Shown here one piece after another: positions 17,551 through 39,686 of a stretch of DNA of 43,442 nucleotides (position 1 is the first letter of the stretch; every line of letters starts with the position of its first letter). A program made the translations under genes and the position numbers. The notes beneath the pieces were generated by a model, which was given only the letters and a program-made list of their open reading frames with translations, ran no database searches and had not been told where the DNA came from. Source of the stretch: an uncultured Gammaproteobacteria bacterium (lineage in GTDB: Bacteria; Patescibacteriota; Patescibacteriia; JAQUQO01); the NCBI GenBank assembly GCA_964482065.1, contig CAYZWC010000001.1, positions 1-43,442 of the forward strand. The letters are read 5' to 3'.

Positions 17551-18528
17551 ATGGCAAAATCTTACGTTGATCCAACATTTCATTTAAAGAAGAAAAACAA
17601 GGATATCGAGCATGAAGATTATTTGGAATACCGCCGGAAGTGGAGTGAAAATCCTAAAAATTTTATTGTGGGTGATTTCCCTATTCATCTTGATTTGGAG
17701 GCCACTTCAAATTGTAACCTCAGGTGTTTTATGTGTTTTCAATCTTTTGACAAGCCCGAGTCGGTTACTATGGATTTGGATCTTTTCAAAAAAAATATTG
17801 ATGAGGGAGCATCCAAGGGCCTTTGCTCCATAAAAACCATGTACCGCGGCGAGCCCCTACTGCACCCGGATATAGTAGAGATGGTTAGATATGCCAAAGA
17901 AAAGGGAATTATTGAAGTTATGTTTAATAGCAATGCGACTCTTTTGACTGAAGATAAGGCTCGCGCTCTTATAGAAGCCGGGCTTGATAAATTAATTTGT
18001 TCGGTGGATGGATGTACCAAAGAAGTTTATGAAAGCGTGAGAATAGGAGCGAATTTTGAAACCATGCTTAACAATATAAAAACCTTGCAGCGCCTGAAAA
18101 AAGAAATGGGTTCTAAAACTCCGATAGTAAGAGTGCAGATGGTAGACACGCCGAGGAATCACCATCAAATAGATGAGTATTTGGAATTTTGGGGGAAGAT
18201 TGTAGATCACGTGGCGGTAGAGGATATGTTGGACTGGAATGCAGAAGACGAAGACGCGACTCCATTTCCTGATTTTGCCTGCGCTCAATTGTGGCAGAGG
18301 CTTGTTATTACCGCTGATGGCGATGTACTTCCTTGCTGCCGGGCTTTGCGCGGCGGAAATGAGAAGCTCGAAGTTTTGGGAAATGTTAAAGAAAGTACGG
18401 TTGAAGAAATTTGGAAAGGCGATAAATTGAATCAATTCAGAGAGTTGCATAAAGGCGGTAATTCTCATGCCATGCGCCTTTGCCGTTTATGTGGGCTCAG
18501 AAAATCTTTGCTTAACAAAAACAATTAA
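17551..18528 (+). CDS. radical SAM enzyme with a C-terminal Cys-rich SPASM/twitch-like domain
   Basis: 325-aa ORF with the CX3CX2C motif (SNCNLRCFMC), a GEPLL SAM-binding strand, and C-terminal cysteines (FACAQLW..., DGDVLPCC, LCRLCG). Confidence 0.8.
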   Translation: MAKSYVDPTFHLKKKNKDIEHEDYLEYRRKWSENPKNFIVGDFPIHLDLEATSNCNLRCFMCFQSFDKPESVTMDLDLFKKNIDEGASKGLCSIKTMYRGEPLLHPDIVEMVRYAKEKGIIEVMFNSNATLLTEDKARALIEAGLDKLICSVDGCTKEVYESVRIGANFETMLNNIKTLQRLKKEMGSKTPIVRVQMVDTPRNHHQIDEYLEFWGKIVDHVAVEDMLDWNAEDEDATPFPDFACAQLWQRLVITADGDVLPCCRALRGGNEKLEVLGNVKESTVEEIWKGDKLNQFRELHKGGNSHAMRLCRLCGLRKSLLNKNN

Positions 18529-18532
18529 AATC

Positions 18533-19558
18533 ATGAGCATTTTACAAGCAGATAAAAAACCATACTTGATTGCCGAATGCGCCTATTCTTATGAAGGTGA
18601 TGAAAATTATTTAAGGGAATCAATAAAAAGAATAGCGGAATCTGATTCTGCTAATGCTGTTAAGTTTCACATTCTTTTGGATATAGACACCTATGCTTGT
18701 CGTGACCACGAAGTTTATGATTTGCTGAGACCTTGGCTTTTTTCTACACAAAAGTGGGAAGAAATTATAGATTTTGCCAAAGGCTTAAATCTCGATGTAA
18801 TTATTTTGGCCGATGATTTAGGCAGTTTGCCGTTTTTAAAGAGTATTGAGGAAAAATTATCAGCTATTGAAATTCATGCTTGTTCACTTAATGATACTGA
18901 TATGCTGGCAAGGGCCGCGGAGTTTAAGATTCCCGTGATTTTGGGCATCGGCGGATCTACACTAGAAGAAATTTCTTTTTCCATTGATTTCTTAAAAGGC
19001 AATGGGAAAGACGAGATAATATTAATGTATGGCTTTCAGAATTTCCCCACCCGCTATGAATATATCAATTTTCGCAAAATGGAAAAATTAAAAAAAGAAT
19101 TTGTCTTGCCTATGGGCTATGCGGACCATACGGCTTGGGATAATGAAAATCAGGAATTAATTACTTTGGCCGGCTTTTTACTTAGTGACGGAATAATTGA
19201 AAAACATTTTGTTTTGCGTGCGGGAGACAAGAGAACTGACGCGGCCGCCGCGGTTTCCGCTGAAGATTTTAAAAGTTTGACGGAAAAAATGAAAATTTTA
19301 CAAAAAGCTTTAGGCAGCGGCTCGTTGGAGCTCAATAAATATGAACTGGATTACGGGAAAATAGGAATTATTAAGAAAACCATTGTTGCCGCCCGCGATA
19401 TAGCGCAAGACGAAGAAATAACCGAAGAAAATATCGCTTTCAAAAGAACCTCCCAAGAAAACGGCGCTCCGCAAAAAGAAATAATTAATTTTTTAGGCAA
19501 AAAAGCCAAAGTGTCAATTTCAAAAGACCAGCTGATTACCGCCAATAACATTTATTAA
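18533..19558 (+). CDS. divergent NeuB-family sugar-PEP condensing enzyme (SpsE-like) with a C-terminal SAF domain
   Basis: I prefer the ATG at 18533, 4 nt after the preceding stop. The protein is collinear with the NeuB at 20647, but key motifs are altered: LIAECAYSYEGD versus IIVDAGVNHNGD, GYADHTAW versus GYSDHTQG, and EKHFVLR versus EKHFTLD. A SAF-like tail (IVAARDIAQDEEITEENIAFKR) is present. Confidence 0.65.
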   Translation: MSILQADKKPYLIAECAYSYEGDENYLRESIKRIAESDSANAVKFHILLDIDTYACRDHEVYDLLRPWLFSTQKWEEIIDFAKGLNLDVIILADDLGSLPFLKSIEEKLSAIEIHACSLNDTDMLARAAEFKIPVILGIGGSTLEEISFSIDFLKGNGKDEIILMYGFQNFPTRYEYINFRKMEKLKKEFVLPMGYADHTAWDNENQELITLAGFLLSDGIIEKHFVLRAGDKRTDAAAAVSAEDFKSLTEKMKILQKALGSGSLELNKYELDYGKIGIIKKTIVAARDIAQDEEITEENIAFKRTSQENGAPQKEIINFLGKKAKVSISKDQLITANNIY

Positions 19559-19566
19559 TTTTATAT

Positions 19567-20637
19567 ATGAGAACCGCAGTTACCATAACAGTAAGAATGA
19601 AGTCCACTCGGCTTCCTAAAAAAGCTTTGAAGGAATTTTGCGGCAAGCCGATGATTGACCATCTCATAGAAAGAGTGGGGAGGGCCAAGCATCCGGATGA
19701 GATCATTTTGTGCACTTCGACAAATCCTCAAGACGATGTCTTGGAAGAAGTGGCTCGGAGAAATAACATTAAATTGTTTCGAGGTGATGAGGATGATGTT
19801 CTGGACCGTTTGTTTAGGGCGGCTCGGGAAAATGATATTAATTTTATTGTTTCCACCACCGGAGATAACCCATTGACTGATCCGGAACACATTGATAAAA
19901 CAATCGAAAAATTCAAGGAAACCGGAGCTGATTACATTACCGGTTTGGACCTGCCCTGGGGAACTTTTTCTTACGGATTAAAAATTGGGGCTTTGGAAAA
20001 AGTTTTGGAATTAAAAGAAGAACGCGACACCGAAGTTTGGGGCCAATATTTTACAAAATCAAATTTATTTAAATTGGATAAAATAGATGTAGATGATTTT
20101 TTGAAAGATTCAGATCTTCGTTTAACCGTAGATACGCCGGAAGATTTTCAATTAATTGAAAGTATCTATAATGAATTATACAATAGCAACCCAGAATTTA
20201 CCTTGGCTGATGTGGTCAGGCTCATGAATACAAAGCCGGAGTTAAAAGAAATTAACGGGCATATAATCCAAAAAATTTCTAATCCCATAAATACCGATTC
20301 ATTAATTAATTCAAATAAAGCTATGCATATTTCCAAAGAAGTTATTAAGGATTGTTTTAATCAGCTGGAAGATAAGAAGGAACTGTCATTTACCTTTAAT
20401 GAAGATCCCAAGATATTTTTTATAAATTTGCTGGCTGAGTTTAAGGGCGAAGATGAGGTCCATGAAAATGATGATGATTTGTATTATGTTGCGGAAGGAA
20501 GCGCTGAATTAATTGTAGATGGAAAAAGTCTAAATATAGCCGCTGGCGATTTTGCGCATGTCCCGGCCGGGCAAGTACATAAAATAAGTTATACAAAACA
20601 AGGAATAAAATACATTGTCATTAAAATGGCAAAATAA
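19567..20637 (+). CDS. cytidylyltransferase (SpsF/CMP-ulosonic acid synthetase-like) fused to a C-terminal cupin domain
   Basis: 356-aa ORF. The N-terminal ~240 aa carry ITVRMKSTRLPKKALKEFCGKPMIDH and TTGDNPL (CTP_transf_3-like). The C-terminal ~100 aa carry the cupin-like HENDDDLYYVAEGSAELIVDG...GDFAHVPAGQVHK. Confidence 0.7.
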   Translation: MRTAVTITVRMKSTRLPKKALKEFCGKPMIDHLIERVGRAKHPDEIILCTSTNPQDDVLEEVARRNNIKLFRGDEDDVLDRLFRAARENDINFIVSTTGDNPLTDPEHIDKTIEKFKETGADYITGLDLPWGTFSYGLKIGALEKVLELKEERDTEVWGQYFTKSNLFKLDKIDVDDFLKDSDLRLTVDTPEDFQLIESIYNELYNSNPEFTLADVVRLMNTKPELKEINGHIIQKISNPINTDSLINSNKAMHISKEVIKDCFNQLEDKKELSFTFNEDPKIFFINLLAEFKGEDEVHENDDDLYYVAEGSAELIVDGKSLNIAAGDFAHVPAGQVHKISYTKQGIKYIVIKMAK

Positions 20638-20646
20638 TATTTTAAT

Positions 20647-21702
20647 TTGAATTGGATGCAGATAAGAATAGGTCAAAAAATAATAAGTGAAGAGCACCCT
20701 GTTTTTATTATTGTTGATGCCGGAGTAAACCATAACGGAGATTTAGACCTGGCAAAAAAATTAATCGACGCCGCTGCTCGGTCAGGAGCCGACGCTGTTA
20801 AATTTCAAACTTTTAATCCCGATACTTTAATTACCAAAACCGCCAAACGAGCCAAATATCAGGAGAAAAATATAGGAGGGGAAGAAACGCAGTATGAAAT
20901 GCTTAAGAGATTGATGCTAAAAAGGGAATACCACCCTTCGTTAAAAGATTATGCGGAGGATAAAGGCTTGATTTTTCTATCCACGCCTTTTAGCCTAGAT
21001 GACGCTGATTATCTTTACGATTTGGGGATTCCCGCCTTTAAAGTCGGTTCTACGGATTGCAATAATATTCCTTATTTAAAACATATTGCCAAGAAGGGTT
21101 TGCCAATTATTTTATCAACCGGCATGTCTTCTCTGGAGGAAGTTAAAGAATCGGTTTTAGCTATACAAAATGAAGGCAATGATCAAATTGTAGTTTTGCA
21201 CTGCACTACTAATTACCCTACGGCTATGGAGGAGGTAAATTTAAAAGTCATGGATACTTTAGCTCGTGAGCTCGGGACTTTGGTGGGTTATTCTGACCAT
21301 ACTCAAGGAATTGAAGTCCCTATTGCTGCCGCTGCCCGTGGCGCCAGAATAATTGAGAAACATTTTACTTTGGATAGGAATATGGAAGGGCCGGACCACA
21401 AAGCTTCTTTGGAACCCGGAGAATTGGAGGCCATGATAAGAGCCGTCAATAATATAGAAAAATCTTTGGGGTCAGGAATTAAAGAACCGGCTCCATCTGA
21501 ATTAGAAGTCGCGGAAGTGGCTCGCAAAAGCATTGTTGCCGGCACTGACATTCCCAAAGGCAGCGTCTTGTCAAAAAACATGCTTGTCTTAAAAAGGCCC
21601 GGCATCGGACTAAAACCGGCGATTATTGAAGAGCTTATCGGTAGAAAAACAAAAGAGGATATAAAAAAAGACGAATTGATAAAATGGGAACAAATTTTAT
21701 GA
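20647..21702 (+). CDS. neuB: N-acylneuraminate/legionaminate-type nonulosonic acid synthase
   Basis: 351-aa ORF with canonical NeuB motifs (GVNHNGDLDLAKKLIDAAARSGADAVKFQTF, STPFS, GYSDHTQG, EKHFTLD) and a SAF domain at the C-terminus. The track start at 20647 is TTG; an in-frame ATG lies at 20656. Confidence 0.88.
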   Translation: MNWMQIRIGQKIISEEHPVFIIVDAGVNHNGDLDLAKKLIDAAARSGADAVKFQTFNPDTLITKTAKRAKYQEKNIGGEETQYEMLKRLMLKREYHPSLKDYAEDKGLIFLSTPFSLDDADYLYDLGIPAFKVGSTDCNNIPYLKHIAKKGLPIILSTGMSSLEEVKESVLAIQNEGNDQIVVLHCTTNYPTAMEEVNLKVMDTLARELGTLVGYSDHTQGIEVPIAAAARGARIIEKHFTLDRNMEGPDHKASLEPGELEAMIRAVNNIEKSLGSGIKEPAPSELEVAEVARKSIVAGTDIPKGSVLSKNMLVLKRPGIGLKPAIIEELIGRKTKEDIKKDELIKWEQIL

Positions 21703-22847
21703 AGAAAAGAAAAATTTTATACATTTCCGGTACGCGCGCCGATTACGGGTTGATGCGAGAAACATTGTTTAAAATTAAAAACAATTCCAAGCTTGATTTG
21801 TCTATTGCCGCCTGTGGTATGCATATTATGCCTGAATTTGGAAATACCGTTCAAGAAATAAAAAATGATAATTTTAAAGTCCATATTTTGAATGCCAAAT
21901 TCCAGAGGGATAATTATGAGTCCATGGCCCGTTTTGTCGGCAAGTTAGTTGGGTTATTGGTTGGCGAGGTCAAAAAGATTAAGCCGGACATTATTTTACT
22001 TTTGGGTGATCGTGGAGAAATGCTTGCCGGCGCTATAGTGGGAGCTTATTTAAAAATTCCGGTAGCGCATATACATGGGGGCGAAGCGACGATGACCGTG
22101 GATGAATTTGCCCGGCACGCCATTACAAAACTTAGCCATATTCATTTTGCTGTTTCGAAAAAATCTGCCGAACGCATCAAAAAAATGGGCGAGGATTCAT
22201 GGCGAATATTTTTAACCGGGGCTCCGGGATTGGATAGTATTTTGTCGCATAAATTTTCGCCGGCAAAAAAAATGGCCGCCAAATATAATTTGGATTTATC
22301 AAAAAAAATCATATTAATGGTCCAGCATCCGGCTGAAGCTGAAGCTAAAGAATCAGCCCGCCAAATAAAAGAAACATTGGAAGCGATTAAGGAGATTGGC
22401 GAGCAAGCTATTATAATTTATCCAAATGCTGATGCTGGAGGGCGTGAGATGATAAAAGTTATTAAAAAATATGAAAATGTTCCATTTTTTCAAATATATA
22501 GAAGTCTCCCGCATGACGACTATTTAAGTTTATTAAAATTAGCCGATGTTTTAGTGGGTAATACTAGTTCCGGGATAGTTGAGGCGCCTTCTTTTGGCTT
22601 GCCGGTAGTAAATATAGGATTGAGGCAAGAAGGCAGGGAGGCTTCAGCTAACGCGCTTCATGTTAATTACGACAAGGCCAAAATAAAAGCGGTTATTAAT
22701 AGGGCATTGCGTGATAAAGTTTTTATTAGAAAGGCAAAAAATTGCCATAGTCCTTATGGAAACGGCCGCGCGGGGGAGAAAATAGCAAAAGTTTTAAGCA
22801 ATATTAAAATAGATAGCAAGCTGTTGAATAAAAAAATAGCTTACTAA
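21699..22847 (+). CDS. neuC: UDP-N-acetylglucosamine 2-epimerase (hydrolysing), NeuC/LegG type
   Basis: I prefer the ATG at 21699, which overlaps the neuB stop (ATGA) and gives MKKRKILYISGTRADYG. Motifs are LLGDRGEML, AHIHGGE, HFAVS and GNTSSGIVEAPSFGLPVVNIG. Confidence 0.85.
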   Translation: MKKRKILYISGTRADYGLMRETLFKIKNNSKLDLSIAACGMHIMPEFGNTVQEIKNDNFKVHILNAKFQRDNYESMARFVGKLVGLLVGEVKKIKPDIILLLGDRGEMLAGAIVGAYLKIPVAHIHGGEATMTVDEFARHAITKLSHIHFAVSKKSAERIKKMGEDSWRIFLTGAPGLDSILSHKFSPAKKMAAKYNLDLSKKIILMVQHPAEAEAKESARQIKETLEAIKEIGEQAIIIYPNADAGGREMIKVIKKYENVPFFQIYRSLPHDDYLSLLKLADVLVGNTSSGIVEAPSFGLPVVNIGLRQEGREASANALHVNYDKAKIKAVINRALRDKVFIRKAKNCHSPYGNGRAGEKIAKVLSNIKIDSKLLNKKIAY

Positions 22848-22852
22848 ATAGC

Positions 22853-23641
22853 ATGACTGCGAATACTAAAGAAAAAAAAGACAAAGTAATTTTTGCCGGC
22901 GATAGGGATTTGGCGGTCGATGTTTTGAAATTTATTTTGGAAAGCGGAGTGCGTCCTTTGGCGCTTATGGTCCCCGACAGAGGGAAAGCTTCCCACGCGG
23001 AAGATTTAATTTCTTTGTGTTCCCACCTAGATAAGTCTCATATTATAGAGGGGGCTGGATTTAAAAGCCCGGAAGGCATCAATTTTTTGTCTTCTTTGGA
23101 TGCTGACTATATCGTGAGCATACATTATCCTTATATATACCCGGCCGAAGTTTTGCGTGTCCCCAAATATGGAGCCATGAATTTGCACCCGGCCTACCTT
23201 CCCTTTACTCGGGGGTGGCATACTTCCAGTTGGGCTATTTGGGATGAAGTTCCTTTTGGAGCCACTCTGCATTTTATGAATGAAGGTCTTGATACCGGAG
23301 ATATTATACACCAAAAAGAGCTTGAAGTTTTACCGGAGGATACAGCTGACTCAGCTTATAAAAAAGCCAAACAATTAGAATTGGAGGTTTTTAAGGAAGC
23401 TTGGCCATCCATTGTTTCAGGCGATTACCAATTAAAAGTTCAGTCCGCCGCTTCCGGTACTTTTCATAAAAAGAAAGATCTATCCGCCATTCAAAAAATT
23501 GATTTGGAAGAGTTTGTTAAAGCCAAAGATTTAATTAAAAAAATTAGAGCGCTGACTACTAATAATATAGAAGAGGGAGCTTATTTTGAATCCGGCGGGC
23601 AAAAGTATCGTTTACAAATACGAATTAAAAAAGAAGATTAA
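22853..23641 (+). CDS. formyltransferase (Fmt/ArnA-N-like), probable sugar N-formyltransferase
   Basis: 262-aa ORF with the formyl_trans_N catalytic pattern: MNLHPAYLPFTRG (Asn/His) and LDTGDII (Asp). Its location inside an amino-sugar block suggests a sugar substrate. Confidence 0.75.
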   Translation: MTANTKEKKDKVIFAGDRDLAVDVLKFILESGVRPLALMVPDRGKASHAEDLISLCSHLDKSHIIEGAGFKSPEGINFLSSLDADYIVSIHYPYIYPAEVLRVPKYGAMNLHPAYLPFTRGWHTSSWAIWDEVPFGATLHFMNEGLDTGDIIHQKELEVLPEDTADSAYKKAKQLELEVFKEAWPSIVSGDYQLKVQSAASGTFHKKKDLSAIQKIDLEEFVKAKDLIKKIRALTTNNIEEGAYFESGGQKYRLQIRIKKED

Positions 23642-23659
23642 TTTATTTTAAAGTAATTT

Positions 23660-25117
23660 ATGACAGACAAAGATATTGCTTCTTTGATGGTAGAAGCGGC
23701 AGGCACAATTAAAGAAGCCATGGAAAATATTACTAAAGGCAAGCGGGGGATTGCCGTTGTTGTTGATAAAAATAAAAAATTACAAGGAGTGGTAACCGAT
23801 CGGGATATCCGAGTAGCTCTTCTTAATAATACTGATTTTTCTGAACCGGTATCAAAGATAATGAATGCCGTGCCGGTGATAGCTCGGGAAGGAACTCCAG
23901 CGGCCGACCTTTTGGAAATATCTTTAGAAAAAAATGTCCTTCAAATTCCAATCGTAGATTCAGACAACAAGTTAGTGGATATTATCGGACGTAACGAATT
24001 AAAAACCATACCGCTTTCTTCTCCCGATATTACAAAAAAAGAAGTGGATGTGATTAATAAAGTTTTAGCGAGCGCTCATTTGAGTATTGGTCCCCAGATC
24101 AAAGAGTTTGAACAAAAAATAGCTGATTTTATCGGCGTAAAATACGCGGTGGGCGTAAATAGCGGGACTAGCGGTCTTCATTTATGCATCAGAAGTTTAG
24201 ATATAAAAGACGGCGATGAAGTAATTACTTCACCATTCAGTTTTATTGCTTCGGCTAATTGCATGCTCTTTGAAAGAGCAAAGTCGGTCTTTGCCGATAT
24301 TGACGAACAGACACTTTGCATAGATCCGGAAAAAATAGAAGAAAAAATAACGGAAAAAACCAAAGCCATTCTGCCGATTCATATTTTCGGGCAGCCGGCT
24401 GCCATGGATAAAATTATGGAAATCGCCCGTCGCTACAATTTAGCGGTGATTGAAGATGCTTGCGAGGCCATTGGCGCGGAGATTAATGGAAAGAAAGTGG
24501 GCTCTTTCGGCGACGCCGCGGTTTTTGCTTTTTATCCCAATAAACAGATTACTACGGCCGAGGGCGGCATGGTGGTAACCAATAATGAAGAGATAGCCAA
24601 GCTTTGCTACAGTATGCGTAACCAAGGACGCGATGAAGATATGAGTTGGCTCAATCACAAAAGATTGGGTTATAATTACCGCATGAGCGAACTTAGCGCG
24701 GCTCTGGGGGTCGTTCAGATGGAACGTATTCATGAAATTTTGGATAAACGCCAGCGGGTAGCCGATTTGTATAATAAAAAATTAAGCCGTTTAGATGGAA
24801 TTATTATTCCCGAAGCAGCTCCGGACACCAAGATGAGTTGGTTTGTTTATGTGATTCGCCTCAACCCTTCCAAATTTTCCAAAGAAGATCGCGATGAAAT
24901 TATAAATAAATTGAGAGACGCGGGCGTGAGCTGCAAAGAGTATTTCCCCCCGATTCATCTAGAGCCTTTTTATACTGAAAATTTTGGCTTTAAGCCCGGC
25001 GATTTTCCCATCACCGAGAGAGTTTCCGGATCCAGCATCGCCTTGCCCTTCCACAATAATTTAAGTGAAGAAGAAATAGATTATGTTGTGGAATCTTTAG
25101 AAAAAATAATTAAATAA
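23660..25117 (+). CDS. CBS-pair domain fused to a DegT/DnrJ/EryC1/StrS-family sugar aminotransferase
   Basis: 485-aa ORF. The N-terminal ~115 aa form two CBS-like repeats (GIAVVVDKNKKLQGVVTDRDI; IPIVDSDNKLVDIIGRNEL). The remainder is typical DegT (GPQIKEFEQKIADF, NSGTSGLHL, SFIASAN, FYPNKQITTAEGG, GYNYRMSEL). Confidence 0.82.
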   Translation: MTDKDIASLMVEAAGTIKEAMENITKGKRGIAVVVDKNKKLQGVVTDRDIRVALLNNTDFSEPVSKIMNAVPVIAREGTPAADLLEISLEKNVLQIPIVDSDNKLVDIIGRNELKTIPLSSPDITKKEVDVINKVLASAHLSIGPQIKEFEQKIADFIGVKYAVGVNSGTSGLHLCIRSLDIKDGDEVITSPFSFIASANCMLFERAKSVFADIDEQTLCIDPEKIEEKITEKTKAILPIHIFGQPAAMDKIMEIARRYNLAVIEDACEAIGAEINGKKVGSFGDAAVFAFYPNKQITTAEGGMVVTNNEEIAKLCYSMRNQGRDEDMSWLNHKRLGYNYRMSELSAALGVVQMERIHEILDKRQRVADLYNKKLSRLDGIIIPEAAPDTKMSWFVYVIRLNPSKFSKEDRDEIINKLRDAGVSCKEYFPPIHLEPFYTENFGFKPGDFPITERVSGSSIALPFHNNLSEEEIDYVVESLEKIIK

Positions 25118-26611: not shown

Positions 26612-28459
26612 ATGGCGAGCAGTATTTTATTAATAGACATCAGTAAATTTGATGATCGGCTCATTCCGCTGGTAAAAGATTTTGAACATGGCCCCGGCGG
26701 TAAGATTATTATTTCTTTTTCTTTACCGATTATTTGGAAAATTAAAGAAATTGTTTCGCCTTCGGTTGAGGTGACCTGGAGCCAAGAAGTTTTGGCCGAT
26801 GATTTTGAAATAATTGATGAGGCTGCTTACAGCATAATTCGCGGCTGGCATGATGGGAAAGGTTTTAGCTCCAATTTAATATATAACGGAGTCAATCTGG
26901 GAGCGACGGTTGAGCATTCTTTGTCCTTGGTTTTGCCTCAGCTTTTAGAGAAAATTAAACTTGTTAAAAAAATTTTGCAGCACGAAAATCCGGGACAAGT
27001 GACAGTAATAAGCAACAATAGCTTATTGGCGGATATATGTGAGAATGTTAAGTCCGGTTTGAGTTTGTCTTTGAACATACAAAGTATTGTTTGGAACGAG
27101 GAAAATTGTCAAGAAAATTTTTTCCGGCCGGAAATTGGCAAGCTGCCCATTATTGATTTTTTAGGCGGACAGCTTATGAGGATGTTTGGTTTCTTTTTTA
27201 AAAAAAAATCCGTTGAAAGAAAAGAAGCAATCTTGGTAAGAAATCCCAAACAGCTTTCCACTCTTTTATCAAAAGATTATAAGATTATTTTTTGCGCGGA
27301 AAAAATTAACCGAGAGCTTACTTTGGGCGTATTACGGAAAAAAGTTCCTTGCCATATAGCTAATGCGTTATTTGCTCGGGATAAAAATAAAATGAAGAAG
27401 TTATGGGGCTCGTTGAACAATGGTCACGAGTTTAAAAAAATTTTTATTTTTGAAGAGGTTGATTTTTGGCCTTTGCTTAAAAAAGATTTTAAAAAAATTT
27501 TTATCACAGCGTTTCCATTCTATATAGGTTATATTAAAAAGGCGGATAAAATTATTCAAAAGACTAAGCCTGCTTTGATGATTTCTACGCCGGGAGTTAC
27601 GGCCCCGGACAGGATACTTTTCGAGCTGGCAGATAAGTATAATATTCCTTCACTGGATATCCAGCACGGTCTTTTGGGAGACCGGCGGGCCAGAGAAATT
27701 ATTTATGCTTCGTGTATGGCTGTCTGGGGAGAAGCAACCAGAAGGCAGTTGGTGAATTGGGGAAATAATGAAGATAAAATTTTTGTAACCGGTAATTATA
27801 AGTTTGATAATTATAAAAATACAACAGGCTTAATACCGCGTGAAGATTTGTGTAGCCAGCTGGGTATTGATCCGACTAAAAAATTTTTTGTTTGGGCGAC
27901 CGGAGTTTATTTTGCCGATAATCTTCCCTACGTTTCTGCGGTTAGAACGCCCGATGAGGGAAGAGTCATCTTTACTTCTATTTTGAAGGTATTAGAAAAG
28001 TTTCCAGAAAAGCAATTAGTTGTTAAAACTCACCCCATGGAAAAACTAGAGGGGTATCTGGATATTTTGGAAAATTTTCCATCCTTAGAGAAACGTGTTA
28101 AGGTAATAAAGCAAGTTCATTTATACAGCCTTTTGAAGGAATCTGAACTTTTGTTTACGCGAGGCTCCACCACTGATTTGGAAGCCATGTTTTTTGGCAA
28201 GCCTATTATTGCTATGAATTTTTCATATGATAATGATTTTTTTTATAAATTTGATATGGTTGGTTGTCCTGTTTTAATAGTTAAAGACCGCAATCGATTA
28301 TACGAAATGGTGCAAAGTGTTTTAACTGATAATTCATTGCTAGCAAATTTACACAAAAGTCAGGAAAAATTTATTCAAGAGTTTGCCGGCGAGATGGATG
28401 GCCGGAGCGGAGAACGCCTGACTGCAGCGATTAAAAAAATTGTTCAAAACAATAGCTAA
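26612..28459 (+). CDS. hypothetical 615-aa protein; the C-terminal half looks like a GT-B-fold glycosyl/ulosonic-acid or glycerophospho-transferase
   Basis: No TM helix is present. The C-terminal half shows a Rossmann-like alternation: LMISTPG, LDIQHG, IFVTGNYKFD, FFVWATG, LVVKTHPME and LFTRGSTTDLEAMFFGKPII. No family could be assigned with certainty. Confidence 0.35.
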   Translation: MASSILLIDISKFDDRLIPLVKDFEHGPGGKIIISFSLPIIWKIKEIVSPSVEVTWSQEVLADDFEIIDEAAYSIIRGWHDGKGFSSNLIYNGVNLGATVEHSLSLVLPQLLEKIKLVKKILQHENPGQVTVISNNSLLADICENVKSGLSLSLNIQSIVWNEENCQENFFRPEIGKLPIIDFLGGQLMRMFGFFFKKKSVERKEAILVRNPKQLSTLLSKDYKIIFCAEKINRELTLGVLRKKVPCHIANALFARDKNKMKKLWGSLNNGHEFKKIFIFEEVDFWPLLKKDFKKIFITAFPFYIGYIKKADKIIQKTKPALMISTPGVTAPDRILFELADKYNIPSLDIQHGLLGDRRAREIIYASCMAVWGEATRRQLVNWGNNEDKIFVTGNYKFDNYKNTTGLIPREDLCSQLGIDPTKKFFVWATGVYFADNLPYVSAVRTPDEGRVIFTSILKVLEKFPEKQLVVKTHPMEKLEGYLDILENFPSLEKRVKVIKQVHLYSLLKESELLFTRGSTTDLEAMFFGKPIIAMNFSYDNDFFYKFDMVGCPVLIVKDRNRLYEMVQSVLTDNSLLANLHKSQEKFIQEFAGEMDGRSGERLTAAIKKIVQNNS

Positions 28460-38708: not shown

Positions 38709-39686
38709 ATGAAAATTTTCATTACCGGCGGAGCCGGATTTATTGGTTCTCATTTGGCCGAAAGCTACCTTCAAGACGGGGATGAAGTTTTTGTAGTAGA
38801 CAATTTTTCCACCGGCAGTCCGGATAATATTGCCCATCTACAGGACAATGATAAATTTCATTTTCATGAAGACACTATTTTTAATCATGAGTTAATGACC
38901 GAACTTATCGGAACTTGTGATTTGATTGTTCATTTAGCCGCGGCTGTTGGCGTAAAATATGTTTTGGATAATCCTTTATCATCTATTCAAACTAATATCA
39001 AGGGGACGGATGTTATTTTGGAACTGTGCAACAAATTCCGCAAGAAAGTTATTTTGGCTTCTACATCGGAGGTTTATGGGAAACACACCCATGCTCCGCT
39101 CGTGGAAACCGATGATATTGTCTACGGCCCTTCCATGACTTGGCGCTGGAGTTATGCCGCTTCCAAACTGGTTGATGAATTTTTTGCCATAGCTTACCAT
39201 CGGGCAAACAAGTTGCCGGTTATTATCGTGCGTCTTTTTAATACAGTCGGTCCGCGCCAAAGCAAAGAGTATGGAATGGTCATCCCGAGATTTATAGATC
39301 AAGCTTATAAAAATTTTCCGATCACGGTTCATGGAGACGGAAAACAGACGCGTACTTTCACCTATGTTTCTGAAGTAGTTGAAGCCTTAAAAAGACTGGG
39401 GAAGAGCGAGGAAGCTATCGGCCAGGTAGTTAATATCGGGGGAACCGAGGAAGTTAGCATTTTGGAATTAGCTGAAAGAATCAAAGATAAAATGAATAGC
39501 CAATCGTCCGTTGACCTTATTCCTTATAATCAGGCTTATCGGAGTGATTTTGAAGATATGACTAGGCGTGTTCCCAGTACGGAAAAATTAAAAAAATTAA
39601 TAAATTTTGCGCCGCAAATAACTTTGGATGAAATTTTGGAAAAAACCATTGAAGACTATAAGCAAAAAATAAAAGGCGATAATTAA
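38709..39686 (+). CDS. extended SDR, NAD-dependent epimerase/dehydratase; resembles the ArnA C-terminal / UDP-glucuronate decarboxylase type
   Basis: 325-aa ORF with TGGAGFIGSHL, STSEVYG, YGPSMTWRWSYAASK (compare the ArnA-type GP...RW.Y..SK) and LFNTVGPRQ. Confidence 0.7.
   Translation: MKIFITGGAGFIGSHLAESYLQDGDEVFVVDNFSTGSPDNIAHLQDNDKFHFHEDTIFNHELMTELIGTCDLIVHLAAAVGVKYVLDNPLSSIQTNIKGTDVILELCNKFRKKVILASTSEVYGKHTHAPLVETDDIVYGPSMTWRWSYAASKLVDEFFAIAYHRANKLPVIIVRLFNTVGPRQSKEYGMVIPRFIDQAYKNFPITVHGDGKQTRTFTYVSEVVEALKRLGKSEEAIGQVVNIGGTEEVSILELAERIKDKMNSQSSVDLIPYNQAYRSDFEDMTRRVPSTEKLKKLINFAPQITLDEILEKTIEDYKQKIKGDN

Follow-up and report, generated by a model that had tools for sequence, protein, structure and literature searches.

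A divergent NeuB paralogue with a dismantled phosphoenolpyruvate pocket points to an undescribed step in sialic-acid-like surface sugar pathways of bacteria and archaea

Nonulosonic acids are carried on flagella, S-layers, capsules and lipopolysaccharides, and the type of nonulosonic acid made is routinely predicted from a NeuB homologue alone. The window analysed here, the whole 43,442 nt of contig CAYZWC010000001.1 (assembly GCA_964482065.1), comes from a 1.03 Mb, 96.5% complete genome placed by GTDB in the Patescibacteriota, and it encodes two NeuB-family proteins on either side of a cytidylyltransferase (CT) fused to a cupin domain. The upstream copy, a divergent NeuB-family protein that we call dNeuB (18533–19558), has lost all but one of the residues with which NeuB enzymes bind phosphoenolpyruvate (PEP), and its relatives travel constantly with a CT. 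Together, the loss of the PEP pocket and the association with the activating enzyme point to an undescribed step in a sialic-acid-like surface sugar pathway. Judging from sequence, we lean, by a little, towards a dNeuB that works without PEP, as an enzyme or at the least as an obligate partner, and that would handle a nonulosonate between its synthesis and its activation as a cytidine monophosphate (CMP) sugar. The arrangement of two NeuB paralogues around a CT-cupin gene had been reported in a first-pass annotation of this DNA and is borne out by the open reading frame (ORF) coordinates and Pfam assignments. Its interpretation survives in part: the active site is remodelled and the clade uncharacterised, whereas a locus making two ulosonic acids, or a condensing enzyme fed by the adjacent radical S-adenosylmethionine (SAM) enzyme, appears less likely than PEP-independent handling of a nonulosonate.

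The motifs that had been read in both NeuB copies are all found in the translations, with LIAECAYSYEGD, MGYADHT and IEKHFVLR in dNeuB and IIVDAGVNHNGD, VGYSDHT and IEKHFTLD in the canonical copy (20647–21702); the two proteins are 25% identical. dNeuB is a member of the NeuB family, a TIM barrel with a SAF domain that passes the Pfam thresholds for both (PF03102, 111.7 bits; PF08666, 37.3 bits). Its AlphaFold model, with a mean predicted local distance difference test (pLDDT) of 91, has Campylobacter jejuni PseI (CjPseI) as its top structural match at a template modelling (TM) score of 0.85, in agreement with the earlier statement that the upstream copy retains the fold and the SAF domain. At the level of equivalogs it falls short of both TIGR03569 (142.2 bits, cut-off 399.65, with the match beginning at residue 58) and the PseI model TIGR03586 (116.7 bits, cut-off 340.25). 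Automatic annotation labels it “sialic acid synthase SpsE” or “N,N'-diacetyllegionaminate synthase.”

A clustered-protein search with dNeuB returned more than 1000 matches, at least 120 of which are 40–65% identical and belong to Patescibacteria, Altiarchaeota, Woesearchaeota, Thermoplasmatota, Hodarchaeota, Clostridia and Bacteroidota. In an exhaustive profile search, only the best 150 matches (representatives of 50% identity clusters scoring at least 200 bits) were counted as safely dNeuB-like, canonical NeuBs scoring 77–174 bits on the same profile; the 896 matches at E ≤ 1e-30 were rejected as a measure of family size because 44 of 56 canonical NeuBs also pass that threshold. Among the 150 representatives, 88 resemble the dNeuB of the window (E-type) and 45 belong to a second group (K-type). 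In a maximum-likelihood tree the dNeuB proteins form one clade (41/41; SH-like approximate likelihood ratio test, SH-aLRT, 99), apart from the canonical NeuBs and from Neisseria meningitidis NeuB (NmNeuB), Bacillus subtilis SpsE and CjPseI. dNeuB is thus no private oddity but a member of a monophyletic, widespread and uncharacterised clade that spans bacterial and archaeal phyla, and phylogeny agrees with the first-pass view that the divergent copy lies outside the characterised clades. PDB 3g8r, the “SpsE” of Chromobacterium, was considered as a clade member and rejected, as it retains Lys129, Ser132, Ser154 and Ser213. The tree also places both NeuBs of the window nearest to the two paralogues of a single Woesearchaeota metagenome-assembled genome (MAG; locus L006), and dNeuB and canonical NeuB therefore appear to travel as a pair. 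The genes run dNeuB, CT, canonical NeuB, NeuC, as in the archaeal arrangement. Movement of the block between DPANN archaea and bacteria of the candidate phyla radiation (CPR) is suggested.

Active-site residues were mapped onto NmNeuB numbering in 80 clade members, chosen by peptide patterns, and 56 canonical NeuBs, with residue roles in NmNeuB taken from published work (PMC11339185; PMC8208679). The state of each position in the dNeuB clade was as follows:

Metal ligands His215 and His236: kept in 80/80.
Catalytic glutamates Glu25 and Glu234: kept in 80/80.
Lys53, PEP carboxylate: kept in 80/80.
Asp247, aldose contact: kept in 80/80.
Lys129, PEP carboxylate: Glu in 80/80.
Ser154, PEP phosphate: Gly in 79/80.
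Ser213, PEP phosphate: Ala in 78/80.
Ser132, PEP phosphate: Ala in 64/80.
Thr110, near PEP: Leu.
Glu134, catalytic glutamate: Gly or Ser.

In the dNeuB of the window the PEP-ligand positions read K44, E113, A116, G138 and A197, of which K44, the equivalent of Lys53, is the sole retained ligand; the metal ligands (H199, H225) and catalytic glutamates (E15, E223) are present. Among the 88 E-type representatives, His215 is kept in 88/88 and Ala213 is found in 87/88, together with His131 (88/88), Gly157 (88/88), Gln184 (87/88) and Arg245 (81/83); His131, Gln184 and Arg245 are newly gained invariant residues of the E-type. The metal and glutamate residues are intact in all aligned E-type representatives, save for five with Asp at Glu25. 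With the catalytic core retained, the PEP pocket taken apart and polar residues newly fixed, the pattern is neither that of a pseudoenzyme nor that of a PEP-dependent synthase, and the earlier reading of a remodelled rather than dead active site holds up when the ligands are mapped. The idea that Phe at Tyr186 in the dNeuB of the window is an anomaly was rejected: it was an artefact of peptide-pattern sampling, and Phe is the majority residue in the unbiased set.

The 45 K-type representatives retain Lys129 and have mostly lost Ser213, which suggests a graded departure from canonical chemistry. Other divergent NeuB subtypes also stand before a CT or are fused to one. P0241 (locus L087, 7970–9004) and the N-terminal half of P0202 have Tyr at Lys129 and Cys at Ser213, and residues 381–713 of P0270 are K-type, with Lys129 and Ser132 kept and His at Ser213; these subtypes form a graded series from canonical NeuB to the E-type.

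The genomic company of the clade was followed in 86 loci, 83 of which were surveyed for neighbours. For the distance between dNeuB and CT, the 83 loci were taken together with three CT-cupin loci and the contig of the window (C43), with 86 counted as carrying a dNeuB. A CT gene lies downstream on the same strand in 71/86 loci, overlapping dNeuB by 4 nt in 30 and separated from it by 1–30 nt in 25; five of the loci that lack a CT are contig ends. Other genes found near dNeuB in the 83 surveyed loci were:

NeuC: 66 loci.
PglD-type acetyltransferase: 53 loci.
PglF/LegB-type dehydratase: 52 loci.
CBS-nucleotidyltransferase (PtmE-like): 52 loci.
DegT aminotransferase: 50 loci.
Canonical NeuB: about 56 of the 83 loci.

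Where no canonical NeuB lies within 10 kb, one was found elsewhere in the genome in 6/6 and 14/16 cases (20/22), and for these 20 of 22 genomes dNeuB was rejected as a stand-alone synthase. In isolate genomes (Bacteroidota, Methanocalculus) the CT beside dNeuB is, apart from KdsB, the sole CTP_transf_3 protein, and must therefore activate the final sugar of the pathway.

Further associations bear on where dNeuB might act. A DUF386/YhcH gene is found near the dNeuB-CT pair in 18/83 loci, directly abutting it in about a dozen, and in P0295 an E-type dNeuB and DUF386 are naturally joined in one protein. In P0270, a single protein of 963 aa, the order is canonical NeuB, dNeuB-like domain, CT. As a Zn-dependent anomerase, YhcH/DUF386 opens the ring of sialic acid and feeds open-chain N-acetylneuraminic acid (Neu5Ac) to the aldolase NanA (PMC8141875). 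The dNeuB clusters that bear DUF386 are biosynthetic and contain no NanA, so that an open-chain nonulosonate would most obviously be used by the protein built on the NeuB scaffold, the ancestor of which releases that very species. The DUF386 neighbours, P0295, the domain order of P0270 and the coupling to CT favour a linear route from canonical NeuB through dNeuB to CT. Two other long proteins were seen. P0342 (899 aa) has a weak AP_endonuc_2 region (a xylose-isomerase-like TIM barrel), a dNeuB-like domain and a CT, and P0246 (808 aa) has a 405-residue N-terminal stretch with no Pfam match ahead of an E-type dNeuB. Homologues of PtmF and PtmA follow the CT in 12–22 loci, and none is present in the window. 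A GFO/IDH/MocA oxidoreductase and a short-chain dehydrogenase/reductase (SDR), the families to which PtmF and PtmA of Campylobacter belong, often come after dNeuB-CT in L026, L029, L036, L037, L038, L045, L059, L061 and L078. PtmF was rejected as a NeuB-like equivalent in Campylobacter-type clusters, as it is itself a GFO/IDH/MocA oxidoreductase.

In the window, dNeuB lies in a glycan-biosynthesis island in which seven plus-strand genes occupy 17551–25117 with intergenic gaps of -19 to +18 nt. The genes and domains of the island and its surroundings are:

17551–18528, plus strand: radical SAM/SPASM enzyme of no characterised subfamily (Pfam Radical_SAM 80.7 bits, SPASM 59.1 bits; best NCBIfam matches far under cut-offs).
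18533–19558, plus strand: dNeuB, E-type, TIM barrel and SAF domain (Pfam scores as above).
19567–20250, plus strand: SpsF/KdsB-like CT domain (PF02348, CTP_transf_3, 94.8 bits).
20308–20637, plus strand: C-terminal small Cupin_2 domain fused to the CT (PF07883, 39.6 bits; cut-off 27.2).
20647–21702, plus strand: canonical PEP-dependent nonulosonate synthase, NeuB/LegI-like (TIGR03569, 457.7 bits; cut-off 399.65).
21684–22847, plus strand: hydrolysing nucleoside diphosphate (NDP)-sugar 2-epimerase, NeuC/LegG (TIGR03568, 417.5 bits; cut-off 235.9).
22853–23641, plus strand: sugar N-formyltransferase (Formyl_trans_N 83.9 bits, N_formyltrans_C 28.7 bits).
23660–25117, plus strand: CBS-pair and DegT/LegC/PseC-type aminotransferase (DegT 420.4 bits, CBS 54.3 bits).
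26612–28459, plus strand: BFO_1060-family glycosyltransferase, candidate nonulosonate transferase (NF046086, 106.5 bits, cut-off 200; TIGR04396, 86 bits).
38709–39686, plus strand: candidate SDR 4,6-dehydratase, LegB-like (best NCBIfam match TIGR04180 LegB, 187.6 bits; cut-off 475).

The ORFs for dNeuB, CT-cupin (19567–20637) and canonical NeuB are closely spaced: 4 nt separate the stop codon of the radical SAM gene from the dNeuB ATG at 18533, and the next two gaps are 8 nt (dNeuB to CT) and 9 nt (CT to canonical NeuB). By Pfam, the window holds one NeuC and one aminotransferase only; the latter scores 347 bits for PseC and 301 bits for the LegC family in NCBIfam, both under the cut-offs. The formyltransferase takes the position that LegH-type acetyltransferases have in related clusters, and 5-N-formyl-legionaminic acid from Halorubrum offers a precedent for N-formylation (PMC6137143). 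From its gene content, the operon plausibly encodes a legionaminic-acid-type nonulosonate pathway, possibly with an N-formylated sugar. In L087 (14157–18755), a close relative of the window cluster, genes for a serine hydroxymethyltransferase (SHMT), a FolC-like protein and a FolD/5-formyltetrahydrofolate (5-FTHF)-cyclo-ligase adjoin a PIG-L deacetylase and a formyltransferase, and look like a dedicated supply of formyl-tetrahydrofolate for sugar N-formylation. The 615-aa product of 26612–28459 also has weak Capsule_synth and Epimerase_2 matches; in Tannerella, BFO_1060 itself is found at the margin of the nonulosonate locus, which makes this protein a candidate nonulosonate transferase.

The condensing, PEP-dependent enzyme of the operon is, by its sequence assignment, the downstream NeuB. 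It scores 330.7 bits for Pfam NeuB and 46.6 bits for SAF, passes the NeuB_NnaB equivalog TIGR03569 while staying below the PseI model TIGR03586 (300.6 bits, cut-off 340.25), and matches PDB 1vli (218 bits), 8h2c and 1xuu; an alternative start codon is the ATG at 20656. Its PEP and metal ligands are complete apart from Glu25, which is Asp (residue 24, IIVDAG) in place of the Glu kept in NmNeuB and in 56/56 compared canonical NeuBs. Glu134 is likewise Asp, a change of archaeal/eukaryotic type. The first-pass description of this copy as textbook therefore fits its motifs, but not the Asp at Glu25.

The CT matches PDB 6oew at 83 bits and has the conserved motifs RMKSTRLPKK, TGDNP and RLTVDTPED, which we take to be catalytic from what is known of KdsB. 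All of 11 homologues share R10, K12, S13, R15, K19, D100 and D189, and the protein qualifies as a CMP-ulosonate cytidylyltransferase. Against the NCBIfam equivalogs KdsB, PseF and NeuA it stays below the cut-offs, with best scores of 56–70 bits for KdsB (cut-offs 193–281) and 28.5 bits for PseF (205.7). A genome-wide search found neither a further NeuB-family gene nor a further CMP-type cytidylyltransferase; the only other PF02348 match is an NTP_transferase beside GlmS. A second CMP-transferase elsewhere in the genome was thus rejected, and the earlier remark that only one is present extends from the window to the whole genome, leaving CT as its sole candidate CMP-nonulosonate synthetase.

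Fusion of CT to a cupin is rare and lineage-specific, being seen in 7 of 716 CT homologues (53–69% identity). The order is always divergent NeuB, CT-cupin, canonical NeuB (L085, L086; L087 with a type-2 divergent NeuB first). The cupin domain is modelled as a small cupin barrel (pLDDT 93.6), and, set against the classical His/His/Glu/His metal motif of cupins, it conserves only two His and a run of acidic residues (HxN/D...D...HK). Foldseek returned generic small cupins, among them KdgF, a uronate ring-opening enzyme. Homology to DUF386 was considered and is not established, there being no Pfam match to PF04074 and no YhcH in the Foldseek top 50. The cupin stands where about a fifth of related clusters have a separate YhcH/DUF386 gene, and by analogy with YhcH/DUF386 it may plausibly help in ring opening or anomer delivery. 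The first-pass suggestion of an epimerase- or oxygenase-type modification step finds nothing in its favour here, and only the 7 of 716 CTs carry a cupin at all.

A radical SAM homologue lies near dNeuB in about 7/86 loci (the window, L001, L004, L031, L050, L052 and L087). It is an occasional accessory, not a core part of the dNeuB module, and it is accordingly not the clade's usual source of substrate; the first-pass annotation had named its product as a possible substrate of the upstream copy. Positions 12–234 of the NCBIfam spiro-SPASM model (TIGR04321) match CT and positions 225–489 match the radical SAM protein, so that the two genes of the window correspond to two halves of a spirochaete fusion protein. 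This split match hints at a functional link between radical SAM and CT rather than between radical SAM and dNeuB.

The anatomy, residue pattern, phylogeny, co-occurrence and fusions described above are what the sequences show; from them we infer on what dNeuB acts, in which order the steps run and by what chemistry. The LegB-like dehydratase would act first, followed by the CBS-aminotransferase, the N-formyltransferase, NeuC and canonical NeuB, which would condense its substrate with PEP and release an open-chain nonulosonate. dNeuB, rather than joining PEP to an aldose, would then most likely bind this open-chain species and convert it, or deliver it to the coupled CT-cupin protein, with the BFO_1060-type transferase acting last; candidate reactions for dNeuB are an isomerisation or a retro-aldol/aldol-type step, and the cupin could have a helper role comparable to that of the YhcH anomerase. 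A more specific proposal, which we put forward as a speculation with the odds well against it, is that E-type dNeuB carries out a metal-dependent, PEP-independent and obligatory isomerising step, not described before, in a variant of the legionaminic-acid pathway that is widespread, with its product trapped by the SpsF-type CT. The displayed sugar would then be an isomer of legionaminic acid, e.g., its 4-epi form, and not legionaminic acid as such. DUF386 or the fused cupin would supply the open-chain nonulosonate, and retro-aldol/aldol epimerisation at C4 would be one option; an analogy is offered by L-ribulose-5-phosphate 4-epimerase, an enzyme of class II aldolase descent. For 4-epi-legionaminic acid itself, the route of biosynthesis is not known and its producers are reported to lack Leg genes (PMC5595891), which weakens the idea of epimerisation at C4.

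Comparison with known systems places dNeuB close to NeuB synthases in architecture and apart from them at the PEP site. It shares the TIM barrel and SAF domain of NmNeuB (PDB 1XUZ), CjPseI (8H2C) and LegI (TM 0.78–0.85), as well as the two metal His, Glu25, Glu234, Lys53, Asp247 and, in the branch of the window, Arg314. It differs from them in the replacements Lys129 to Glu, Ser132 to Ala, Ser154 to Gly and Ser213 to Ala, in the loss of Glu134, in a β2-α2 loop shorter by 14 residues, in the new His131, Gln184 and Arg245, and in forming its own clade. In B. subtilis, SpsE and SpsF are a legionaminic acid synthase and its cytidylyltransferase (PMC7439481). There too a NeuB-family gene lies directly upstream of an SpsF-type, KdsB-like CT in a legionaminic-acid pathway. 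However, SpsE (PDB 1vli) is of the canonical PEP type, scoring 218 bits against the canonical NeuB of the window and 40 bits against dNeuB, and B. subtilis has no second NeuB, whereas the SpsF-type CT of the window is paired with a paralogue devoid of the PEP site in addition to a canonical synthase.

The pairing of YhcH/NanQ with NanA offers a different likeness, that of a small metal-dependent β-barrel protein encoded beside, or fused to, an aldolase-type TIM-barrel enzyme acting on nonulosonates. The context of dNeuB is biosynthetic rather than catabolic, its TIM barrel is NeuB-like and metal-dependent rather than a class I aldolase, and the window has a Cupin_2 domain on CT, of no demonstrated homology, instead of DUF386. 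The Leg clusters of Campylobacter, Tannerella and Halorubrum (LegB, C, H, G, I, F and PtmE) have the same enzyme set as the dNeuB loci, namely a dehydratase, an aminotransferase, an N-acyltransferase, a NeuC-type 2-epimerase, a NeuB-type synthase and often a CBS-nucleotidyltransferase. In Tannerella, Plesiomonas/Campylobacter and Halorubrum the clusters have a NeuA-type LegF and no dNeuB, a slot that the window fills with dNeuB and an SpsF-type CT.

Three other explanations of dNeuB were weighed. A second condensing synthase, making a second ulosonic acid with the single CT activating both products, would fit the NeuB fold and SAF domain, the retained metal ligands, Glu25, Glu234, Lys53 and Asp247, and the continuum towards canonical enzymes that K-type proteins with Lys129 and Ser132 provide. 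However, the E-type clade has other residues at Lys129, Ser154 and Ser213 throughout, the window encodes a single NeuC and a single aminotransferase and the genome a single CT, dNeuB is almost never found without a canonical NeuB, and its conserved neighbour is CT and no extra aldose pathway; we consider this explanation quite improbable. The first-pass proposal of two different ulosonic acids meets the same difficulty, in that the altered residues are the PEP ligands Lys129, Ser132, Ser154 and Ser213 and the partner is a CT. Its alternative of a specialised condensing enzyme is likewise disfavoured by the altered PEP ligands, by the canonical NeuB present in 20 of the 22 hard cases, and by a constant partner that is CT and not an aldose-supplying enzyme. 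Condensation with a donor other than PEP (pyruvate or oxaloacetate), in the metal-dependent manner of class II aldolases and with the same or a radical SAM-modified aldose as acceptor, would account for a phosphate pocket that is gone while the metal site and the carboxylate-binding Lys53 stay. His131, Gln184 and Arg245 could serve enolate chemistry, and a radical SAM gene adjoins dNeuB in the window and in L004. Such an enzyme would nevertheless duplicate the almost always co-present canonical NeuB, the radical SAM homologue is missing from most loci, and the substrate suggested by the DUF386 neighbours and the DUF386 fusion is a ring-closed nonulosonate rather than a hexose, which makes this reading unlikely. 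Finally, dNeuB could be non-catalytic, serving the SpsF-like CT as scaffold or specificity subunit, or forming a heterodimer with canonical NeuB through swapped SAF domains. Its gene obligately adjoins or overlaps that of CT, natural fusions are known and the PEP site is lost. Yet both metal His, both Glu and Asp247 are strictly conserved and the new polar residues are invariant across Bacteria and Archaea, a signature of a working active site, and we hold a purely structural role to be very unlikely.

Several observations weigh against PEP-independent handling of a nonulosonate by dNeuB. The peptide-pattern choice of the 80 loci biases some of the “invariants,” and the tally was redone on the 88 unbiased E-type representatives for this reason. 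In these, Ser132 is retained in 54/88, and Arg314 of the SAF domain in only 34/88, although it is present in the branch of the window. The dNeuB of the window itself has Tyr at residue 20, where 81/84 E-type proteins and all canonical NeuBs have His30, and Ser at residue 218, where 81/85 E-type proteins have Gly229, a residue 100% conserved in NeuB (PMC8208679). His131 and Arg245 could form an alternative anion site, with altered binding of PEP or pyruvate. A subclade, mostly of Omnitrophota with one Planctomycetia locus, has no adjoining CT, and two MAGs, both fragmentary, have dNeuB yet no canonical NeuB. Among the 150 representatives, fusions of a dNeuB-like domain to CT (~590 aa) are common but K-type, with Lys129 kept, and bear on the E-type copy of the window only indirectly. 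For the cupin, alignment to DUF386 with hhalign gave only 25% probability over 33 columns. Searching the literature turned up no paper on the dNeuB clade and no member of it that had been characterised.

If the dNeuB clade is not a clade of synthases, synthase annotations mis-state the pathway in many loci of Bacteroidota, Planctomycetota, Omnitrophota, Bacillota, Patescibacteria, Thermoplasmatota, DPANN and Asgard archaea. The proposed role is testable in cultivated carriers of dNeuB, which include Kriegella aquimaris, Flagellimonas ochracea, Glaciecola amylolytica, Halpernia humi and Methanocalculus chunghsingensis. If a conserved extra enzyme does sit between nonulosonate synthesis and CMP activation, the true surface sugar of these organisms would differ from that predicted from gene content, and dNeuB would represent a new type of reaction for the NeuB/KDO8PS/DAHPS superfamily.

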